From IMG/VR virus record IMGVR_UViG_3300001357_000001, positions 64,001-128,000 of that record: 64,000 nt of DNA, one strand, 5' to 3'. Below, one piece after another: positions 39,476 through 62,181 of the stretch. How positions within the stretch are numbered: position 1 is the stretch's first letter; each line of letters starts with the position of its first letter. The stretch comes from a virus (lineage: Duplodnaviria; Heunggongvirae; Uroviricota; Caudoviricetes). Under the pieces are notes generated by a model, which worked only from the letters and a program-made list of their open reading frames with translations, did not search any database and had not been told where the DNA came from. Position numbers and translations under genes: made by a program.

Positions 39476-39726
39476 AATACTAATTTTTAGTTTATTATAA
39501 ATACGTGTCATTTTATTATACGACAAAGGTAAGAAAATGTTACAGAAAAACAACTATTTTTTCTTTTTTTGTTGTAAATCTTCAACAAATTCAATCATTT
39601 TATTTAAAGTGTCATTAGAACCTTCCATGTATTTAGTTGGTGAACAAGAATTTTGTTCACAATATTTATTATTTAAATCCTTTCTTCGATTTAATTCATT
39701 TAGAATTTTTTGAAGTTTTTTCATAA

Positions 39727-41471
39727 TTATTTTTCTCTTAATGTTTCATATATTTTCCTTTCCATTTCAATTCTAATTAAAGTACGATTCATATGGTCTT
39801 CATGAGTAGTAATTGAAGGTTCAACATGAGCGACTCCTTTAATCATTTCAACAGCATTTTTTATTACTTCGAAGTCATCAATTCGATAATCACCATCAAG
39901 TGTTACTGTAAATCCTTTTACCCTGTTTGTCATAATTAATCTAATTTAAATTCAGTAATTACTTTTTTTTCTTTTGGTGTCACAATATTGCCTTTTATTA
40001 TTAGATAAGAATTTTCACCCCAATAATTAGTATCATTATTAGAAGGAATTTCATCAAGGAAATAAACATCATCACCATAATCACCATCAGCAAGTTCTTT
40101 TAAAAATTTTTCTTTATCAATTGGTCTTACTGTTGTGTCACCATCACTATTATGAATTAAATAATAAATTTCTTCACTCATTTTTTTATATTTTAATTAG
40201 TATTTTATTTTATTTTGAGGGCGTGACGGGACTCGAACCCGCAACAACAATGTTTTAGAGACCTTGCGTTCTACCAAGTGAACTTCACGCCCGTTTTACT
40301 CCCTTCACCAGAGGTTGTTTCCAACAGAAGGGAGGTCTTTGTTTCCATTTGTCTCAGTCAGCGAATTCTCTCTCTTTCAACTTAGTCCGTTAATTCGGCT
40401 CGAAATTCGCAGGAATAGCGGAACATTTGCTCGTCCCGACATGTTTTGTTAAAGAACGTTACTTTGCCACCAAATCATCATTGGTCTTATATGTTGACGA
40501 TAAAATAATATTTTAGAATATGTTATTAAAAATTCAGGAAATCCTTTAGGTATACCCTTACAATTATTAACATATTCTTCATAAATATCATTAATATTTT
40601 TTTCATTCATCATCAATTCCAAATATATGTTTCCTAATTATTCTGTAATTATTAAAACTTAAACACATTGCTTTAAACATACCACTATCCTTTGCTACCT
40701 GATAAATATATTTTTCACCTTTTTTTATCGTTTTCTGTAAATCTTTGAGATTAATACGCCATTCCTTTCTTTCTTCAACACTAGTATTATCACAAATATA
40801 AACATAACCATCACAAATTCTATCAAATTGAGAAACAGGATATGTTCGTTTCAATAATTCAAAATCTTTCATCGAATATTTAATTCTTTTTCAAGTTTAA
40901 GTACTTGTTCCAATAATTCATCTTGTTTATCAATCCATATTAGTTGAGTATTTCTTTTAAATATCGCATTCCATTGTCTATTAGGATATTTTATATTACT
41001 TGCACGTTCTAATCTATCAATAAGAGAATAAAATTCATTATTTTCATATATTAATGTGTCGAGTTTATTTATTTGCATTTTAATATAAAGCAAATCTTTG
41101 TTTTCAACACCAACTAATAATTCGTCTCTAATGTCAATTAATTCTTTCATTTAGTTCATGTAAAAAATTTTTTCGTCAAATCTAAATTTAGGATTAAATG
41201 CTGTAATACAATCATTTTCATGAAGGTCATGGTCGAGAACCAGCAATACCAATTCATCAAGTTTATCACCTAATTCCCATTGGTCATTACCTCTTGCAAT
41301 AATATAACCATCATTTACATCGATTTTACTAAAAACAAAAGGCTTGTTGTCTTCATCAATTTCTCTATTAATTGTGCCATGAAAACATCGGTCAAAACCT
41401 TTATTGCCTTTACCTGCTTTCGCCATAAAAATTTCTGTAAGTCCTATTTTATTATTTTTCTTTTTTTCCAT
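39727..41471 (-). CDS. Small hypothetical genes (39727-39933, 39936-40181, 40603-40872, 40869-41150, 41151-41471)
   Basis: ATG ORFs flanking the suppressor tRNA. Confidence 0.55.
40218..40292 (-). tRNA. Amber suppressor tRNA (anticodon CTA)
   Basis: GGGCGTG/CACGCCC acceptor; CAAGGT-CT CTA AA-ACATTG; GCGGG-TTCGAGT-CCCGT. Confidence 0.75.
40297..40445 (-). ncRNA. Candidate structured RNA upstream of suppressor tRNA
   Basis: GCGAATT/GAATTCGC, TGTC/GACA, CTCCCTTC..GTTG-GAAA-CAAC..GAAGGGAG; follows boxA at 40447. Confidence 0.45.
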
Positions 41472-54646: not shown

Positions 54647-57600
54647 TTATCCACATTTGCTGTTTCCACATCCCATGCAAATCAGACAACCCTCTTTATA
54701 TTGTAAATCATTACTACCACATATAGGACAAGTACCACTGCCTTTTTCTCCGTCTTTAATAAATCTTTTTATTACACGAGCAACACCGTTTTTCCATGTA
54801 TTAATATGGTCTTCTTTAAATGTTAAAGAATCAACCAATTCATACACATATACTAACGGCATTTTATGTCTTAGTACACCAGAAATAAATTTGGCATAAT
54901 TCCAATACTCAGGGTCAAAAGCATGATTTAAACCCGTATGTACATGTTTTTCACCATCTTTATCAACGTATTCAATATCATATCTTTTTCTTTTTACTTT
55001 GGTTGTATTGCCGAACTCATCTGTTTCCTCTGTTTCAATAATATTTTTTACTACTTCACATTCTTTTAAAGTTGAAGGTAAATCACTTAATCCATTTTCA
55101 AATTTACCTGTAAAAATTTCATATGGATGACCATCTTTCATTCCAACAACAGCAATCCATTTTTCAAGATTATTTTGAAATCTATAAATTTCTGCCTTTA
55201 ATCTCTTACCTCTTTTTGGAGCATGAATTTCTTCAGGAAGTTTTTCTTCTTTTTTCTTTTCATTAGAAACCAATACACCGCTTCTCGAACCTTCACGATA
55301 AACTGTCATACCTTTACAACCAGCAGACCATCCTGTTTCATATACTTGACGAACAAGGTCTTCACTAACGTTTTCAGGTAAGTTAACTGTTACTGAAATA
55401 CTATGGTCTACGTGTTTTTGAATACGACCTTGCATTTCAACTTTCTTAACCCAATTCACATCATTTGAAGTAGCTTTATAATAAGGTGATTTTTTTACTA
55501 TTTCATCAACTTGTTCTTCTGTCATGGTTCTAACCACTTCAACATCATATTCGTTTGCTTCTAACCATGTTTCGAAATTATAGTGAAAAACAAGATATTC
55601 TTTCCAAGCAATACCTTCATCATCAATAAAATCAATTTGAATATCTTTTTCTTGTGGATTAATTTTTCTTCTTCTCTTATACACAGGTAAGAAAACTGGT
55701 TCGATTCCTGATGTTGTTTGGGTCATAAGACTTGCTGTTCCAGTAGGAGCAATTGTTAATAATGCAATGTTTCTTCTTCCGTACTTAACCATTTTATCAT
55801 ATAACTCAGGATTGGCTTCTTTAATTCGCAATATGAACGGATTATCTTTTTCACGTTTCCAATCATATATTGGGAATGCGCCACGTTCTTTAGCTAAATT
55901 AACTGATGATTCATAAGCATATAATTTTAATTTTTCATGAATATCTTCACTAAAATCATTAGCATCATCAGTACCATATGTTAATCCTAACGCAGCAAGC
56001 ATGTCGCCTTCAGCAGTAACACCTAAACCCGTTCTACGACCTTCGATTGCTTTTTCTCTGATTTTAGTCCAGAGATTAAGTTCATATAATTTAATAAATT
56101 CTTCTTCGGGGTCTGATTTAATCTTAGCAAGGATTCCATCAATTTTTTCAATTTCTAAATCAATAAGGTCATCCATGTATCGCATTGCTTTAATCACATC
56201 TTCTCTGAATAGTTCTGAATCAAAATATGCTTCGGGAGTAAATGGATTTACAACATATCCGAATAAATTTATTGCCAATAATCTACAACTATCATAAGGA
56301 CACAAAGGTATTTCACCACATCTTCGTGCTGATATTCCATTAACTATAATATTCCTACCAATATCTTCTTTTAAACAAAAAACTGGTTCATTTTCTAATA
56401 ATGTTACATTAATAATATTATCAGTAAATGATTTTTTTATTTGATAATTATGAGTATTATTAAATTTATTTTCTTTATTAGTATCACCTAAAAATCCGAT
56501 TGATGACATATAATTAACAATGCTTCCACCAAGACTAATTAATTCAAATTGGTCTTTGGTTTTATATTTAAATCTACCACCCTTTCCATTTGGAAGTTCA
56601 GTTAATTTAGAATCACGTCTTTTATAAATCCCAAAAATTAATCCATTTGAATGTAATATCATTTGAATCTTATTTAAGAAGTCTTCATTACTTTGTGATA
56701 ATCTTATTGTATATCCTGATTTGATACTTCCTTGAAGGCTACCATCAGAATACATTAATGCAGCAACATAAAATTTACCGATATTATTACTTGAATTATT
56801 AAAAATAAATTCAGGTATATGAAATTTATTTTTAAAATTAAATCCTTGTTCTTCGAAAATTTTTCCTATCCAAGCACTTCCAATTCTAATTTTATTATTT
56901 TTATGTGAAACGAAATATTTACTTAGATTTCTATTTTTATTATTTTTACGTTCACCATAAATTTCATATAGGTTATCGATGATTTCACAAACCATATTTT
57001 TCATTCTTTCGGCATCGTCACCCCAAAACTCAAAATATATTCTTTTTCTTTTTTTATCTAAAGTTCCATCACCTTGAAGTAATCCTAATAATAAACTCAA
57101 CATCTCCAATTTTGTTTCAGATTTTTTATTAATAATAGTTCCATTATTTTCTGGAATCGCTATTAAAATATTATCATTAGGTGTTAAATCTTTTGCTTCA
57201 ATCATACCTTTTGTAGTAGCAATATGATGGTCTAATGTACATCTTAATTTGAAACCTTTTGATGTTTTTATTTCAATAATTTCAGCTTCTTTTTTTGTTA
57301 AAAATACATTGCTTGCTTTTCTAACAACAGTACCGAATTCATCATTATTAATTTTCCAATTTTCAGGTTTTTCTTCACCATCATTAACATACGAAATTCT
57401 TTTATCACAAACAACATTGTTTGTTTTATTTAAATCTATTGTAACCAAATCTCCAAATTTAAAATATCCTTTTTCAGTTAATAAATATTCTGATGCAGGG
57501 AAACAAGGATTAGTACTCGTTGTTCTAAAACCGAGGTCGGCATAACAATCAGGAATACTCTCATTAATTACTTTGTCCCAAAATAATATACCGGGTTCGG

Positions 57601-58402
57601 CTGATTTCCATGCATTATGAATTATTTTTTTCCAAAGAGCAGTTGGGTTAATATCTTTACTGTACTTAGGTTCATTACTATCGATAGGATATTTTTGTTT
57701 AAAAGAATATTCATATTTTGCTGCTTTCATAAATTCATCTGTCAGTCTTACAGATACATTAGCACCTGTAACCTGACCATTAACCATTTTAGCATCAATA
57801 AAGTCTTCAGAATCAGGATGTATAATAGAAATGCTTTCCATTAATGCACCTCTACGTCCATCTTGTGCTATTTCTTTAGTACTATTTGAATATCTTTCCA
57901 TAAAAGGAACAATACCTGTACTTGATATAGCACTATTTTTTACAGGACTTCCTTTAGGGCGAACAAAAGACAAATCCAATCCAACACCACCACGTCTTTT
58001 TTGGAGTTGAACCATATCTTGGTCTAATTTTAAAATACCACCATAACTATCACTATCTTTATTGTTTCCAATTACAAAACAATTGGATAATGATACGATT
58101 TGATAGTCATTACCAATACCAGACATTGAACCACCTTGTGGAACAATTCTTTTAAATTTCTTTATTGTTTCATAAATTTCTTTTGCTGATAGCGGATTAG
58201 GATATTTAGATTCTATTCTTGCAAATTCATTTGCTAATCTCCAATGCATGTCATCTGGATTTAATTCGTAATAATTGTCATTATCTTTTAAACAATATTT
58301 TCTTATCCAGACATCAGTAGCTAATTGGTCATTATTAAAATAGGGTAGAGTTGATTTTTCGACTTGTTCTTTAGTGTAGGTTTTTCTGTTTTTTTTTATC
58401 AT
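54647..58402 (-). CDS. nrdJ: Class II (B12-dependent) ribonucleotide reductase with intein
   Basis: PQGG, SLSNCFV, RRGGVG, RRGALM, TNP|CGEIPL, RRTGLG, TIAPTGT, GCKGMTVYREGSR, C-terminal zinc ribbon. Confidence 0.92.
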   Translation of the reverse strand: MIKKNRKTYTKEQVEKSTLPYFNNDQLATDVWIRKYCLKDNDNYYELNPDDMHWRLANEFARIESKYPNPLSAKEIYETIKKFKRIVPQGGSMSGIGNDYQIVSLSNCFVIGNNKDSDSYGGILKLDQDMVQLQKRRGGVGLDLSFVRPKGSPVKNSAISSTGIVPFMERYSNSTKEIAQDGRRGALMESISIIHPDSEDFIDAKMVNGQVTGANVSVRLTDEFMKAAKYEYSFKQKYPIDSNEPKYSKDINPTALWKKIIHNAWKSAEPGILFWDKVINESIPDCYADLGFRTTSTNPCFPASEYLLTEKGYFKFGDLVTIDLNKTNNVVCDKRISYVNDGEEKPENWKINNDEFGTVVRKASNVFLTKKEAEIIEIKTSKGFKLRCTLDHHIATTKGMIEAKDLTPNDNILIAIPENNGTIINKKSETKLEMLSLLLGLLQGDGTLDKKRKRIYFEFWGDDAERMKNMVCEIIDNLYEIYGERKNNKNRNLSKYFVSHKNNKIRIGSAWIGKIFEEQGFNFKNKFHIPEFIFNNSSNNIGKFYVAALMYSDGSLQGSIKSGYTIRLSQSNEDFLNKIQMILHSNGLIFGIYKRRDSKLTELPNGKGGRFKYKTKDQFELISLGGSIVNYMSSIGFLGDTNKENKFNNTHNYQIKKSFTDNIINVTLLENEPVFCLKEDIGRNIIVNGISARRCGEIPLCPYDSCRLLAINLFGYVVNPFTPEAYFDSELFREDVIKAMRYMDDLIDLEIEKIDGILAKIKSDPEEEFIKLYELNLWTKIREKAIEGRRTGLGVTAEGDMLAALGLTYGTDDANDFSEDIHEKLKLYAYESSVNLAKERGAFPIYDWKREKDNPFILRIKEANPELYDKMVKYGRRNIALLTIAPTGTASLMTQTTSGIEPVFLPVYKRRRKINPQEKDIQIDFIDDEGIAWKEYLVFHYNFETWLEANEYDVEVVRTMTEEQVDEIVKKSPYYKATSNDVNWVKKVEMQGRIQKHVDHSISVTVNLPENVSEDLVRQVYETGWSAGCKGMTVYREGSRSGVLVSNEKKKEEKLPEEIHAPKRGKRLKAEIYRFQNNLEKWIAVVGMKDGHPYEIFTGKFENGLSDLPSTLKECEVVKNIIETEETDEFGNTTKVKRKRYDIEYVDKDGEKHVHTGLNHAFDPEYWNYAKFISGVLRHKMPLVYVYELVDSLTFKEDHINTWKNGVARVIKRFIKDGEKGSGTCPICGSNDLQYKEGCLICMGCGNSKCG
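56321..57505 (-). mobile_element. Intein (395 aa) with LAGLIDADG endonuclease at the NP/CGE active-site position
   Basis: Starts CFPASEYLLT; LLGLLQGDG and ALMYSDGS; ends VFCLKE...IIVNGISARR before C. Confidence 0.88.
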
Positions 58403-58635: not shown

Positions 58636-59337
58636 TTAATCTTCTTCTTTATCAATTAACGATTTAGATAAAGTATCAAAATTTGCATCAGTTGTTGTCA
58701 TACTCCTATAATTAACTGCAGCATCATTTAATGTGCTCGACATATTAAATACACCATCACTATTAGCAGTATATGTATATGTATTACCACCACTAATACC
58801 AAAACTAGACCCTACTGAGAAAGCGTCTTGATTTGCAGCAAGATATATGAAATTCCAATCGTCTTTTTCGCAATTTTCAATAAGTTTTTGAATATTATCT
58901 TTAGTATATTCCTTACTATTGTTTTCATGACCATCGGTTACAATACACACCAGTACTTTTGATGGTGCTTCAACACCAAGTTTTTTGTGATTTTGTTTGA
59001 CATCATTTATTGTTTTACCAATTGCATCATAAAGTGCTGTAGTACCTCTTGGATACCATTCATCATCAGTTATTTCTTTTACTTCTTTAATATCGACATT
59101 ATCATACAGTAATTCGTATTTGTCATCGAAAAGTGCAACGGTAAGTGTTGCTTCATCAGGTAAATCTTTTTGTTGTTTAATGAACGTGTTGAATCCACCA
59201 ATACTATCATCCATAATACCAGTCATTGACCCACTACGGTCTAAAATACAAATTATTTGAGTTTTTTCATTTGTGTGAAGTGATTCTTCGGTTACTGTCG
59301 TAACAGTTGTGGTTACTTTTTTCTTTCTTTTAGCCAT
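58636..59337 (-). CDS. vWA-domain protein
   Basis: ILDRSGSM, TALYDAIG, IVTDGHENNS. Confidence 0.88.
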   Translation of the reverse strand: MAKRKKKVTTTVTTVTEESLHTNEKTQIICILDRSGSMTGIMDDSIGGFNTFIKQQKDLPDEATLTVALFDDKYELLYDNVDIKEVKEITDDEWYPRGTTALYDAIGKTINDVKQNHKKLGVEAPSKVLVCIVTDGHENNSKEYTKDNIQKLIENCEKDDWNFIYLAANQDAFSVGSSFGISGGNTYTYTANSDGVFNMSSTLNDAAVNYRSMTTTDANFDTLSKSLIDKEED

Positions 59338-59505
59338 TTTTATACATAAGCATTTATTTTAAAGTTATTTTGTCCAAAGATAATTCAATTTTAAATAAAA
59401 TGCAAGGATTTTTTTATTCATAATTAACTACAATAAAAAAAGTTATGTATTATATCGTAAAGATAAGGTTTAACCTGACCAATATGATATAAATCATAAC
59501 TTTTG

Positions 59506-59585
59506 TGAGAGTGGAGGGATTCGAACCCCCAAGTCCGAAGAACCAGACCTACAATCTGGCGAGCCACCAATTGCTCAACACTCTC
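59506..59585 (-). tRNA. tRNA-Tyr(GTA)
   Basis: GAGAGTG/CACTCTC; CCAGA-TT GTA GG-TCTGG. Confidence 0.9.
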
Positions 59586-59590
59586 ATTTG

Positions 59591-59663
59591 TGGGGATGGT
59601 AGGACTCGAACCCCCGACTCTCGCATTAAAGGTGCGATACTCTACCAACTGAGTTACGAACGC
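59591..59663 (-). pseudogene. Chimeric tRNA: Lys-like 5' part joined at the T loop to the 3' end of another tRNA
   Basis: 5' GCGTTCG does not pair with 3' CATCCCC; T stem GGGGG/CCTAC mispairs; loop CCTTTAA. Confidence 0.6.
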
Positions 59664-59669
59664 AAGTTG

Positions 59670-59744
59670 TGACCCCTCTGGGATTCGAACCCAGAACCCA
59701 CTGGTTAAAAGCCAGTTGCTCTACCAATTAGGAGCTAAGAGGTC
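59670..59744 (-). tRNA. tRNA-Lys(TTT)
   Basis: GACCTCT/AGGGGTC; ACTGG-CT TTT AA-CCAGT. Confidence 0.92.
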
Positions 59745-59760
59745 ATTTCACATTGACTGT

Positions 59761-59846
59761 TGGTCACCAAACGGGACTCGAACCCGTGCGCAGGGATTAA
59801 GAATAGCAAATGCGTTCCCTTGCTCTGCCAACTGAGCTACTGATGC
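59761..59846 (-). tRNA. tRNA-Lys(CTT) with 12-nt insertion in anticodon loop
   Basis: AGGGA-[ACGCATTTGCTA]-TT CTT AA-TCCCT; normal D and T arms; encoded CCA. Confidence 0.7.
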
Positions 59847-60044
59847 AGCCAATGTGTTTACTCATAATATTACTTGTCTCCAGTACTGATTTAATTTACT
59901 AATATGTTTCCTGAATTAATGCCTGTCAGAACCTTCCTCTGCTCACGCTTTTTTCGCCTTTGCTATTGTTACATTAAGACATTTCACATATTTTCCATTA
60001 AGTCTTCATTTCGACTTTCACATTATTTTCAAAGAACATATAAC

Positions 60045-60075
60045 AAAAAAAACCCGACTCTTTCGAATCGGGCTT
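60045..60075 (-). terminator. Attenuator terminator of the Lys/Tyr tRNA operon
   Basis: CCCGATTC-GAAA-GAGTCGGG plus T8. Confidence 0.85.
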
Positions 60076-60100
60076 TAAATTTGTTATAAAGTCATTACTT

Positions 60101-60193
60101 TTATATCATAACTTTAGACATAATAATCCCGATTCGTATAAGATACTTCTTATAAGATTTTTTACCGTAATAATATTTTCTAAAAGTTGTCAT
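60101..60193 (-). CDS. Lys/Tyr-rich leader peptide (30 aa)
   Basis: MTTFRKYYYGKKSYKKYLIRIGIIMSKVMI; contains antiterminator CGAATCGGG. Confidence 0.85.
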   Translation of the reverse strand: MTTFRKYYYGKKSYKKYLIRIGIIMSKVMI

Positions 60194-60267
60194 TTCTATA
60201 AATTTTAATTTGAGTTTGTAAAACTATAACATAAATACGAGAAAAACAAGTAAATGTTACAAAATAT

Positions 60268-62181
60268 TTATTTTTTTGCTGATATAAAAACATAACTACT
60301 TTTAATATAGGAAGTTATGTTATTAAATCCTAAGTCAAATAAATCCATTTTCAAAATAATTGAATTATTTTTTTGTTCACTAATTTTTAAAATTCCATTT
60401 GTTTTTAATACACGGTGTGCTTCTTTCAAAACATCTAAGTAATTATCGGCATTAATTGATGAAACTACGACAACATCAAATGAATTGTTTTCTAATGGTG
60501 TGTTTGCAATATCACATTCAATAACATTATTATCCATAGCAATAAAATCTAAACCAATAACACTATCATTTTTTCTTAGTTCAGAAAAATAATTACTACC
60601 ACATCCAAAATTAGCTATTTTATAATTAGTATTGTCACCTAATGATTTTGATATTTCAATATATGGATATAATTGGTTTTTCTTTTTTTCTTGATTTTTT
60701 TTAAATTCAATAAAAGTATTACCCAAATTTTTGTATTCATTTAATAATTCATTTGTATTTAAATTATTATAATTTCTAATTAAATGAACGTACTTAAGCA
60801 TATTATTTGCACCTTTTTCATAAGGAGTATTTAAATTAAATTTAACATTATTACCAATTAATTTTACTTTATTTAAGTTATTAATAAATTCTTTTTTGTT
60901 ATCAGATAGATTAAAATATTTAAAATATAAATCTAATGCTTCTTGATTATTCATCAATATTTTTAGGTAAATGTCATGATATTCAGTATCTAATATTTGC
61001 AAATATCTTTCATCAACTTTCATTTCATTAGCATTCCCATCAAATTTATCTACATCAAAACTACTATAGTAACCATTAATTGCTACTTCATTTAATTTAT
61101 CTTCATTATAATCACCATTTAATTCATCGCAAATATTTTCACGATATTCTTTCAAAGTGAAAAAATCATCATAAATTACTAATACTTTATTATTTACGTA
61201 ATTAGTTTCTCCATAAAATTCTTTTACTGTTTCACACCATATTTTTATTTGTTGATTCATTTCATTCATTAATACAGAATCATCATAACCATCTCGATAA
61301 TTTATTAAATTAACTTTCATTAATGGTAAATAAGATGCCAACCAATTTAAATAATCTCGAACAACTATAACATTAATACTATTATCTTGAATACTATAAT
61401 ATCCATTATCTAATCTAAATTTCATCGGAGTAATGTTTTCAATATTAGTATAATTATAATTAATGTCTTTAATCCATGATTTAATATTGTTCATAACAAA
61501 ATTATGACCACTTCTTGAACTTGAAATAACATTTAAATTAAAATCATTTAAATTAACTTCATTAACAAATTTATTTAAATTACTTGTATCATTATAAAGT
61601 TCATTATCTTTAAAGTCATTAATTGAATTAAAAATTTTAACTAATGTTCTTTCGATTTTATCAATTTTACGTTTTTTTGTTTTATTATTAATGTTTGAAG
61701 ACAACATCTTTTTATATGTAGAAAAAGTTTCACGTAAAATCCATTCATTACCATAATATTTAGTATATATGTTAGGATATAATTCAACGGTACTAATATT
61801 TTCTTCAGGATATTCATCTCTATAAATATCAATACCATAAAAATCATCAATATAAAAACACGCTGTTAAATAATTATTTTCTTCTTTAAATTTAAATTCA
61901 TTATTTAAATTAGTTTTAATACTGTCTTCAAAAATTGTGAAATCCAAATTTAATAAATAATCCTTTAATTCATATAGTATTTTATCACCATAATCCCCAA
62001 TAATAATTGAAATATCCAAATCATGAAAACGTTCTTTTTTTATTATTTCAACTCTATCATGAACAATACCGCCAGTAAAAATTAAATCACCAGAATCAAT
62101 ATAATTTTTAAAATTATTAAAGATATTAGTAACTAAAAATTCTAATAAATCTGATTTTATTTTTTCATTATTATATATCAT
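60268..62181 (-). CDS. Multidomain protein: NTase-like / sulfotransferase-like / C-terminal SAM methyltransferase (RRP8-like)
   Basis: GG..HD...DLDI; ISSSRSGHNF...VVRDYLNWLAS; IANFGCG...ECDIANTPLENNSFDVVV. Confidence 0.6.
   Translation of the reverse strand: MIYNNEKIKSDLLEFLVTNIFNNFKNYIDSGDLIFTGGIVHDRVEIIKKERFHDLDISIIIGDYGDKILYELKDYLLNLDFTIFEDSIKTNLNNEFKFKEENNYLTACFYIDDFYGIDIYRDEYPEENISTVELYPNIYTKYYGNEWILRETFSTYKKMLSSNINNKTKKRKIDKIERTLVKIFNSINDFKDNELYNDTSNLNKFVNEVNLNDFNLNVISSSRSGHNFVMNNIKSWIKDINYNYTNIENITPMKFRLDNGYYSIQDNSINVIVVRDYLNWLASYLPLMKVNLINYRDGYDDSVLMNEMNQQIKIWCETVKEFYGETNYVNNKVLVIYDDFFTLKEYRENICDELNGDYNEDKLNEVAINGYYSSFDVDKFDGNANEMKVDERYLQILDTEYHDIYLKILMNNQEALDLYFKYFNLSDNKKEFINNLNKVKLIGNNVKFNLNTPYEKGANNMLKYVHLIRNYNNLNTNELLNEYKNLGNTFIEFKKNQEKKKNQLYPYIEISKSLGDNTNYKIANFGCGSNYFSELRKNDSVIGLDFIAMDNNVIECDIANTPLENNSFDVVVVSSINADNYLDVLKEAHRVLKTNGILKISEQKNNSIILKMDLFDLGFNNITSYIKSSYVFISAKK

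Follow-up and report, generated by a model that had tools for sequence, protein, structure and literature searches.

A putative leader-peptide attenuator in front of tRNA-Lys and tRNA-Tyr genes in a phage genome

A group of tRNA genes for lysine and tyrosine lies on the minus strand of a phage genome segment of 64,000 nucleotides (nt), referred to here as the window, which corresponds to positions 64,001 to 128,000 of the IMG/VR virus record IMGVR_UViG_3300001357_000001 (Caudoviricetes). In the order of transcription, the locus comprises a Bacteroidota-type promoter, an open reading frame (ORF) of 30 codons rich in Lys and Tyr codons, an intrinsic terminator, and four Lys/Tyr tRNA or tRNA-like genes (Table 1). 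This arrangement, called the Lys/Tyr unit in the following, is considered here as a candidate attenuator, in which decoding of the short ORF would govern transcription of the tRNA genes behind it.

Table 1. Coordinates of the Lys/Tyr unit, of its sister units and of neighbouring genes
Feature	Position	Strand	Sequence, basis or remark
Promoter	60219-60264	-	Sequence reading; upstream motif, -33-like CTTG, CGTATTTAT, -7 box
-33-like CTTG	60250-60247	-	
Promoter motif CGTATTTAT	60239-60231	-	
-7 box TAGTTTTA	60226-60219	-	Relatives read TAnnTTTG
Leader ORF, 30 codons and stop	60193-60101	-	MTTFRKYYYGKKSYKKYLIRIGIIMSKVMI; ORF listing; ATG at 60193
Putative sensor run, codons 6-17	60178-60143	-	KYYYGKKSYKKY; sequence reading
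Hairpin P1 (regions 1:1')	60154-60137	-	UAUAAGA / UCUUAUA, loop AGUA; predicted folds; inside and just after the Lys/Tyr run
Region 2, putative antiterminator 5' strand (codons 20-22)	60136-60128	-	CGAATCGGG; exact complement of 60072-60064
Internal hairpin H	60116-60087	-	UAAAGUUAU / AUGACUUUA; predicted fold without region 4; within the 2:3 loop
Stop codon of leader ORF	60103-60101	-	In the loop of hairpin H
Intrinsic terminator	60072-60045	-	5' arm CCCGATTC (region 3), loop GAAA, 3' arm GAGTCGGG (region 4), T8
Terminator stem	60072-60065 / 60060-60053	-	8 bp, G+C-rich
T8 tract	60052-60045	-	
boxA-like motif	60038-60026	-	TGTTCTTTGAAAA; just past the terminator
Spacer from boxA-like motif to first tRNA	60025-59847	-	No -7 box; part conserved in L001, L105 and G001
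tRNA-Lys(CTT)-like gene	59846-59763	-	Rfam 35 bits; 19-nt anticodon loop; Lys-CTT in ARAGORN with introns
tRNA-Lys(TTT)	59744-59670	-	ARAGORN; Rfam 61 bits
tRNA-like gene, TTT anticodon	59663-59591	-	Rfam 38 bits; non-standard acceptor-stem pairs; no ARAGORN call
tRNA-Tyr(GTA)	59585-59506	-	ARAGORN; Rfam 51 bits
Second unit, promoter	51764-51738	-	
Second unit, 43-codon ORF	51697-51566	-	METRNINSIISSTTIISRNGNSIFCSNFGRDMNSGTGFNDIRI; no K, Y or L
Second unit, terminator	51538-51512	-	
Second unit, boxA-like motif	51453-51442	-	TGTTCTTTGACA
H/P/Q and L/A/V/D/E/W leaders	Outside the window		G001 = L108-L124 (122407-122490; 126635-126766); L125-L127; L252-L254
637-aa protein gene	60268-62181	-	C-terminal Methyltransf_8 (rRNA-methyltransferase-like) domain
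Ribonucleotide reductase gene	54647-58402	-	Apparently interrupted by an intein-like insert; neighbour of the Lys/Tyr unit

Organisation of the Lys/Tyr unit

Between codons 6 and 17, the leader ORF contains five Lys codons (AAA three times, AAG twice) and five Tyr codons (TAT four times, TAC once). The G+C content of the window is 27%, and the codons for these two amino acids are AT-rich and hence cheap in such DNA. Nonetheless, the density of the run is unique in the window: ten Lys or Tyr residues in 12 codons, against a maximum of seven among the 193 other ORFs of 25-45 codons that start with ATG in any of the six frames, and likewise of seven in the 33 long ORFs, examined over 9,309 windows of 12 residues each. 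No Pfam family was matched by the leader peptide.

The terminator is found 28 bases from the stop codon of the leader. Its hairpin has a stability of about -17 kcal/mol, and no other terminator-like site of the region is as strong; only three such sites occur in 4 kb, where 0.8 would be expected. The exact terminator string has no match in IMG/VR. The segment CGAATCGGG of the leader is the exact reverse complement, over 9 nt, of CCCGATTCG (60072-60064) in the terminator 5' arm, a match that reaches p=0.007 among dinucleotide shuffles of the leader. The stop codon of the upstream 637-aa gene is located at 60268, and the conserved promoter region follows directly 3' of that gene. The terminator was therefore rejected as the mere end of the 637-aa gene, because a conserved promoter stands between the two and because the unit has unrelated upstream genes in different phages.

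Regarding the promoter, a conserved upstream motif (TTTTGTAACATTT) precedes the -33-like element, the motif CGTATTTAT and the -7 box. The Bacteroidota sigma-A consensus is TTTG / TAnnTTTG (PMC7366714), and a TAnnTTTG box is found 28-94 nt upstream of the leader ATG in 23 of the 25 versions of the unit described below. A scan for sigma-70 promoters was uninformative (39 sites vs 33.5 expected), and the Bacteroidota -7 box was searched in their place. Judged from the promoter boxes alone, the host would belong to the Bacteroidota. The same class of promoter precedes a second leader of the window. The promoter-type motif occurs a third time (TGTAACATTTTCTT...CGTAT...CGTATTTAT) at about 39500-39545 on the minus strand, upstream of a gene starting ATG ACT TAG, and an amber suppressor-like tRNA (CTA) is located near this copy, at 40217-40292.

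Past the terminator lies TGTTCTTTGAAAA, which we take to be similar to boxA. This motif is common after the terminators of other leader classes, and within the Lys/Tyr class it occurs in only two of the 25 units, the window and L105. The first tRNA gene of the window stands 198 nt behind the T-tract. A separate promoter in this spacer was considered and rejected, as no -7 box is present there; moreover, none of the versions has a TAnnTTTG box between the terminator and the first tRNA. As side observations on the spacer, a block reading ...GAGCAG.GGAAGGT.CTGACAGGCA... is conserved between the window (60025-59847), L001, L105 and L102, and phages of the L021/L024 type carry GCATAAAAAC repeats instead.

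Four tRNA matches are detected by Rfam behind the terminator. In the first gene, similar to tRNA-Lys(CTT), the anticodon loop is enlarged by an insertion of 12 nt; this insertion is probably tolerated or processed, because a similar gene stands first in the clusters of two relatives (L001 and G001).

A preliminary description of this DNA, made from its letters, had proposed on the minus strand a promoter, a 30-codon ORF (60193-60101) rich in Lys and Tyr in codons 6-17, a terminator (60045-60075) with a GAAA loop and a T8 tract, a leader segment (60136-60128) perfectly complementary to the terminator 5' arm (60072-60064), a boxA, and no downstream genes other than tRNA-Lys(CTT), tRNA-Lys(TTT), a Lys-like gene and tRNA-Tyr(GTA). 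Every element of this layout was found again at its place: the ORF and its run were located as described, the terminator spans 60072-60045, the complementarity is exact, and the set of tRNA genes is borne out by ARAGORN and Rfam. Two details call for comment. The promoter had been placed at 60234-60261, where the conserved upstream motif indeed lies, but the actual -7 box falls outside this interval. The boxA-like motif exists at 60038-60026 and is retained in just two of the 25 Lys/Tyr units.

Conservation in related phages and in paralogous units

Related uncultured phages were reached through the vWA gene downstream of the unit, the DNA pattern of the leader, the records behind other loci, and a metagenome scan. 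In this way, 25 distinct versions of the Lys/Tyr unit were collected, the window included, plus the locus L128; among the matches listed, the metagenome pattern scan gave mostly chance matches in AT-rich DNA besides L128. Five of the related genomes (G001-G004 and G006, 320-365 kb) are 100% complete according to CheckV, three of them with terminal repeats. A DNA search of cultured phages yielded tRNA-level matches only, a neighbouring protein shares about 33% identity with its closest cultured relatives, and the upstream 637-aa protein used as a query did not find related loci.

In all versions the leader begins with ATG and comprises 26-33 codons. Its frame is open in 25 of 25 versions, while frames +1 and +2 are open in none of them. 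Synonymous variation is found across the versions at codons 15 and 16 (AAA/AAG), 5 (GGA/GGT/GGC) and 13 (TCT/TCA) as well as between TAT and TAC; codon 9 varies between TAC and TTC, and Lys and Tyr are interchanged in L101, L102 and L105. The divergent L010 shows no sequence similarity in the run, yet it contains a rearranged run, YYKKYYYKHY. Substitutions of this coding type point to an ORF that is read as codons. Residues beyond Lys and Tyr are also highly conserved (F4, G5, G10, S13, N23 and M25). The last Lys/Tyr codon in most versions is codon 16, which ends 10 nt before region 2; in the window a further Tyr follows at codon 17.

The terminator hairpin and its T-tract are present in 25 of 25 versions, with a 3' arm and a loop that vary and a stem that is kept. 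At least eight nt of complementarity between codons 19-22 and the terminator 5' arm are found in 24 of the 25 versions (8-9 nt). Several changes in this helix are compensated: in L010 the leader segment TAAGACTGG pairs with a terminator arm reading CCGGTCTTA, in L107 an A-U pair is swapped to U-A (GGATTCGGG vs CCCGAATTC), and in L104 a change from U-A to U-G is accompanied by compensation in the terminator 3' arm. In L101, a 1-nt deletion shifts the frame over region 2, yet the motif GAATCGGG is retained; because it survives this frame shift, the constraint on region 2 would act on the RNA and not on the residues Arg-Ile-Gly.

The predicted RNA structures agree with these comparisons. Applied to the whole alignment, the terminator 3' arm included, RNAalifold returned unprompted a consensus with P1 and exactly the helix between regions 2 and 3. 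Because the terminators of L010, L107 and the L024-type sequences are misaligned by MAFFT, the alignment-based count of paired cells for this helix (86.7%) is too low, and the 2:3 helix was analysed sequence by sequence. P1 spans codons 13-20, with 94% of its alignment cells paired against 42-55% when the partner strand is slid; one of its pairs, between codons 15 and 18, covaries from G-C to A-U in five sequences. It is a candidate for a pause hairpin and for a part of the 1:2 structure. In folds of the antiterminator state, for which a ribosome was placed at codon 12 of each version and region 4 was absent, the minimum-energy structure contains the 2:3 helix enclosing hairpin H in 25 of 25 versions. 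Full-length folds contain the terminator in 19 of 25, with the two states only a few kcal/mol apart. In the ribosome-free fold, the 5' half of the ORF, including the Lys/Tyr run, forms a long 1:2 hairpin with the 3' half, including region 2, which competes with the 2:3 pairing; both P1 and this long hairpin overlap the run. From the sequence, then, the unit would follow the classical 1:2 / 2:3 / 3:4 logic of attenuators. The motif AATGA(C/T)TTT of the 3' arm of hairpin H recurs past the stop codon in many versions.

Behind all 25 units stand clusters of Lys and Tyr tRNA genes, the sole exceptions being three isolated ARAGORN calls of other tRNAs. The clusters comprise two to eight genes, and Lys-TTT, Lys-CTT and Tyr-GTA are combined in all kinds of order. 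In 13 of the 25 versions the first tRNA begins only 4-24 nt past the T-tract, and the tRNAs of these versions could therefore be transcribed only through the terminator. Two Lys-type tRNAs are aberrant, namely the one at 59663-59591 of the window, whose acceptor stem is mismatched, and one in L007 (3392-3478), whose anticodon is UUU and whose variable arm is long.

The Lys/Tyr unit is not isolated in these genomes. The complete relatives contain four paralogous units, whose leaders fall into the classes K/Y, S/T/R/N/G/I/F/C, H/P/Q and L/A/V/D/E/W (one-letter amino acid code). G001, for instance, possesses 48 tRNA genes, nearly all of them between 122 and 160 kb. When the starts of five of its tRNA runs were examined, two were found to be preceded by a promoter, a short ORF and a terminator, and the other three lie further downstream, inside the Asp/Glu block; its Lys/Tyr cluster and its large cluster are also preceded by the same three elements. 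In this genome, the K/Y leader precedes Tyr and Lys tRNAs, a leader with MKNLVNIQHQPVQHPQ... precedes those for His, Pro and Gln, one with ...LAIVVMLDAVLLWDDAEEL... precedes those for Asp, Glu, Leu, Val, Ala and Trp, and one with ...TSGTTISRNGNGIFCSIFGRN... precedes those for Cys, Ile, Ser, Asn, Phe, Gly, Thr, Met and Arg. The four classes recur in G002, G003, G004 and G006. The share of sensor residues that belong to the own set of the class is 0.46 for K/Y (background 0.16), 0.84 for S/T/R/N/G/I/F/C (0.44), 0.49 for H/P/Q (0.07) and 0.73 for L/A/V/D/E/W (0.32). The matrix of classes against sets is diagonal, and in all four classes composition is kept although the order of the residues differs. 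Binomial p-values for chosen sensor windows are post hoc and illustrative only.

The unit of the S/T/R/N/G/I/F/C class in the window, which precedes a large cluster of Cys, Ile, Ser, Asn, Phe, Gly, Thr and further tRNAs, shows the same design. In its ORF, 40 of the 43 residues belong to the set of the downstream tRNAs (p ~2e-11), and the segment TTCGGGT (51599-51593) is complementary to ACCCGAA (51539-51533) at its terminator. This unit is kept in relatives, where its antiterminator covaries.

The three sister classes have terminator stems that vary freely from one phage to another, and each ORF has towards its end a segment that changes together with its own terminator, as in G002, where a leader with GTTCAGTCGGGT accompanies a terminator with ACCCGACTGAAC. 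Complementarity averages 8.35 nt for cognate and 6.08 nt for non-cognate combinations (permutation p = 2e-4). Such covariation constitutes strong independent support, at the level of sequence, for the architecture proposed for the Lys/Tyr class. Several leaders of the further classes start with a similar MK(N/T)L.NI-like stretch, and the promoter motif GTAACATTT is common to the leaders of the large cluster and of the Asp/Glu block; this shared start and this shared motif suggest that the leader classes arose by duplication. A check recommended in the preliminary description, whether leader codons co-vary with the content of downstream tRNAs in related phages, thus gave a positive answer in four paralogous units. 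Its core proposal of a leader-peptide attenuator before tRNA-Lys/Tyr genes gains support from the conservation of the unit and from the coding-type and compensatory changes.

Proposed mechanism and its alternatives

Taken together, the locus quite probably represents a ribosome-mediated (leader-peptide) attenuator of transcription that controls entry into a phage operon of tRNA-Lys and tRNA-Tyr and raises tRNA synthesis when decoding is slow. We infer translation of the ORF, stalling, termination, read-through and their timing as follows. The host RNA polymerase would start at the Bacteroidota-type promoter and make the 30-codon leader. If charged tRNA-Lys or tRNA-Tyr were scarce, a ribosome would stall in the Lys/Tyr run, covering region 1 and leaving region 2 free to pair with the terminator 5' arm, in a helix closing a loop that contains hairpin H; with this 2:3 pairing, the terminator would fail and the polymerase would continue into the tRNA genes. 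Under fast decoding, the ribosome would pass region 2 and come to sit between regions 2 and 3, at the stop codon within the hairpin H loop; the 3:4 terminator would form, and transcription would end at the T8 tract. In the absence of a ribosome, the long 1:2 hairpin would compete with 2:3. The quantity sensed would be the availability of charged tRNA at the ribosome. The tRNA product would relieve the stall, in a closed, self-limiting feedback loop by which the supply of tRNA would be kept in step with the demand of decoding. Because additional tRNA cures a shortage of tRNA and not amino-acid starvation, the sensible signal would be a shortage of host tRNA relative to the demand of the phage, which could come from the AT-rich codon usage of the phage or from destruction of host tRNAs.

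This last possibility leads to a more far-reaching proposal. AriB of PARIS has tRNA-Lys as a known nuclease target (PMC12409363), and the Lys/Tyr unit might be a counter-defence trigger, which senses the collapse of host tRNA-Lys/Tyr caused by anticodon nucleases and answers within one transcription event with phage tRNAs, some of which (e.g., the Lys-CTT with the enlarged loop) would possibly be uncut; the four units together would then provide a codon-resolved read-out of host decoding for all 20 amino acids. We regard this role as doubtful, and the link to PrrC, PARIS, the retron and colicin E5 is speculation. Supply on demand for an AT-rich phage is the simpler reading.

Several points weigh against the attenuator. 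The ORF runs 8-10 codons past region 2, and a ribosome at the stop codon would not mask region 2, unlike in trpL; we infer how full translation would block 2:3 pairing, and the coupling of transcription and translation in the host, as well as the footprint and timing of the ribosome on the leader, are assumed. Regions 2 and 3 are almost invariant in the Lys/Tyr class, so that its covariation comes from three lineages only. The Lys/Tyr unit of L102 (G001) has just six complementary nt, no more than shuffled sequences reach (p=0.46), and six of the 25 versions are predicted to favour the antiterminator even when region 4 is included. L007 lacks a clear tRNA-Tyr behind a leader that contains Tyr. 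For a leader, the peptide shows unusually high conservation, and it may have a role itself. In addition, G006 keeps a promoter, a terminator and one tRNA-Tyr at its Lys/Tyr site (L002) without a K/Y leader, and in the distant phages L092, L098, L099 and L020 an ordinary gene terminator stands directly before a tRNA, also without a leader. Regarding G006 (L252-L254), its K/Y leader has decayed, and within the 60 kb where its tRNA clusters lie there is a single tRNA-Tyr, whereas tRNA-Lys is absent; judging from these 60 kb, it would be a natural loss case, in which the K/Y leader and tRNA-Lys are both gone.

The conservation of the peptide beyond Lys and Tyr (F4, G5, G10, S13, N23, M25), the leaderless terminators of the distant phages, and the survival in G006 of a terminator and a tRNA-Tyr without the ORF would all be expected if the leader were a small basic peptide, or a small RNA, with its own function and terminator, and the tRNAs arose from constant leak-through without any sensing. 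This explanation seems unlikely to us, since it leaves unexplained why each of four paralogous ORFs reflects the amino-acid set of its downstream tRNAs, why a segment of each ORF remains complementary to its own terminator arm although that arm varies, and why GAATCGGG survived the frame shift of L101. Furthermore, the conserved non-K/Y codons fall within the predicted helices P1 and 1:2, and the overlap with RNA helices largely explains the conservation of F4, G5, G10 and M25; the peptide, for its part, matches no Pfam family. It is also conceivable that translation of the leader matters and that its output is the processing or stability of the tRNA precursor, or the access of Rho, in place of intrinsic termination. 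The spacers of 4-24 nt, which imply processing of tRNA precursors close to the terminator, and the six of 25 versions in which the terminator is not the predicted minimum-energy fold speak for such an output. In every unit, however, a canonical G+C-rich hairpin with 6-8 T behind it is accompanied by a competing helix on the 5' arm of that hairpin, which is the signature of a terminator and antiterminator, and this makes the processing explanation very unlikely.

An RNA-only switch, i.e., an untranslated leader that binds a tRNA or a protein in the manner of a T-box or of a protein-mediated attenuator, has an even smaller probability in our estimation. The core is strongly conserved at the nucleotide level, and Bacteroidota mRNAs have no Shine-Dalgarno sites, so that the start site is not confirmable from sequence; against these two points stand the ORF open in 25 of 25 versions vs none for the other frames, the synonymous changes, the amino-acid composition kept in all four classes despite a differing order of residues, and the lack of any match to T-box or another Rfam family at E<=1. 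Finally, a chance ORF in AT-rich DNA beside the terminator of the upstream gene would draw on the 27% G+C of the window and the AT-rich codons of Lys and Tyr. The density of the run, unique in the window, the conserved promoter between the upstream gene and the ORF, the different upstream genes of the unit in relatives and its conservation in 25 versions refute this possibility, whose probability we hold to be negligible. The leader-peptide attenuator accordingly stays the preferred interpretation of the Lys/Tyr unit.

Comparison with known systems

Within 59000-60800, a cmscan search against Rfam at E<=1 gave, besides tRNA, only sub-threshold matches to small RNA and antisense families (best E 0.14, far below gathering). 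A T-box or a curated Rfam leader (Trp, His, Leu, Thr) was accordingly rejected as an identity for the unit, as none is among the cmscan matches in that interval. In full-text searches of the literature, no publication was found on leader-peptide attenuation of tRNA genes or on a sensing device before phage tRNAs.

To our knowledge, leader-peptide attenuation has been described only for genes of amino-acid biosynthesis, for a synthetase and for a few resistance genes, and never for tRNA genes or in viruses. The cargo of the phage unit consists of tRNA genes and not of the biosynthesis or aminoacylation genes of the described attenuators; this cargo is the point of novelty and has no bearing on the mechanism. 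Clusters of tRNA genes in phages have been read as codon compensation or as a means to evade defences that target tRNAs (van den Berg et al., 2023; PMC10264068). In this literature (PMC10264068, PMC12409363) the phage tRNAs supplement or replace those of the host, whereas here their expression would depend on the speed of decoding.

If the proposal is true, the phage gauges the decoding speed of particular codons and tunes its own tRNA output by direct feedback. This would bear on the 50-year-old question of the purpose of phage tRNAs, since each leader would show which shortage the phage expects, and the four units covering all 20 amino acids suggest a general design. The units would also be compact sensors of decoding speed that could serve as reporters, and the strong comparative signal puts the idea within reach of simple reporter constructs.

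Among known attenuators, the enterobacterial leaders thrL and ilvL/ivbL (also trpL, hisL, pheL and leuL) likewise have a short ORF, which in the multivalent members contains codons for more than one amino acid, followed by a terminator, an antiterminator helix on the terminator 5' arm, and a competing 1:2 hairpin, predicted in the case of the phage unit, that overlaps the regulatory codons. They have no sequence or Rfam relationship to the phage unit and differ from it in several respects. The enterobacterial attenuators regulate biosynthetic enzymes, whereas the phage unit is viral and would regulate tRNA genes, with a product that acts directly on the sensed step, decoding. A further difference from the enterobacterial leaders is that the phage ORF extends past region 2 by 8-10 codons and that its stop codon is enclosed by a predicted hairpin.

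The pheST operon of E. coli, with its pheM leader, has a leader-peptide attenuator of a component of the translation apparatus that responds to charged tRNA. That system concerns a synthetase and one amino acid in a bacterium, while the phage unit concerns tRNAs, two amino acids would be sensed, and the 20 amino acids are shared out over four units. T-boxes likewise control translation-related genes by termination and antitermination according to the state of a specific tRNA. Nonetheless, a T-box binds uncharged tRNA directly and without translation, by means of a specifier loop and a conserved T-box sequence, whereas the conserved part of the phage unit is a codon-biased ORF. In its workings, therefore, the proposed attenuator resembles the multivalent thr/ilv attenuators, and in its purpose it comes nearest to the pheST leader and to the T-boxes.

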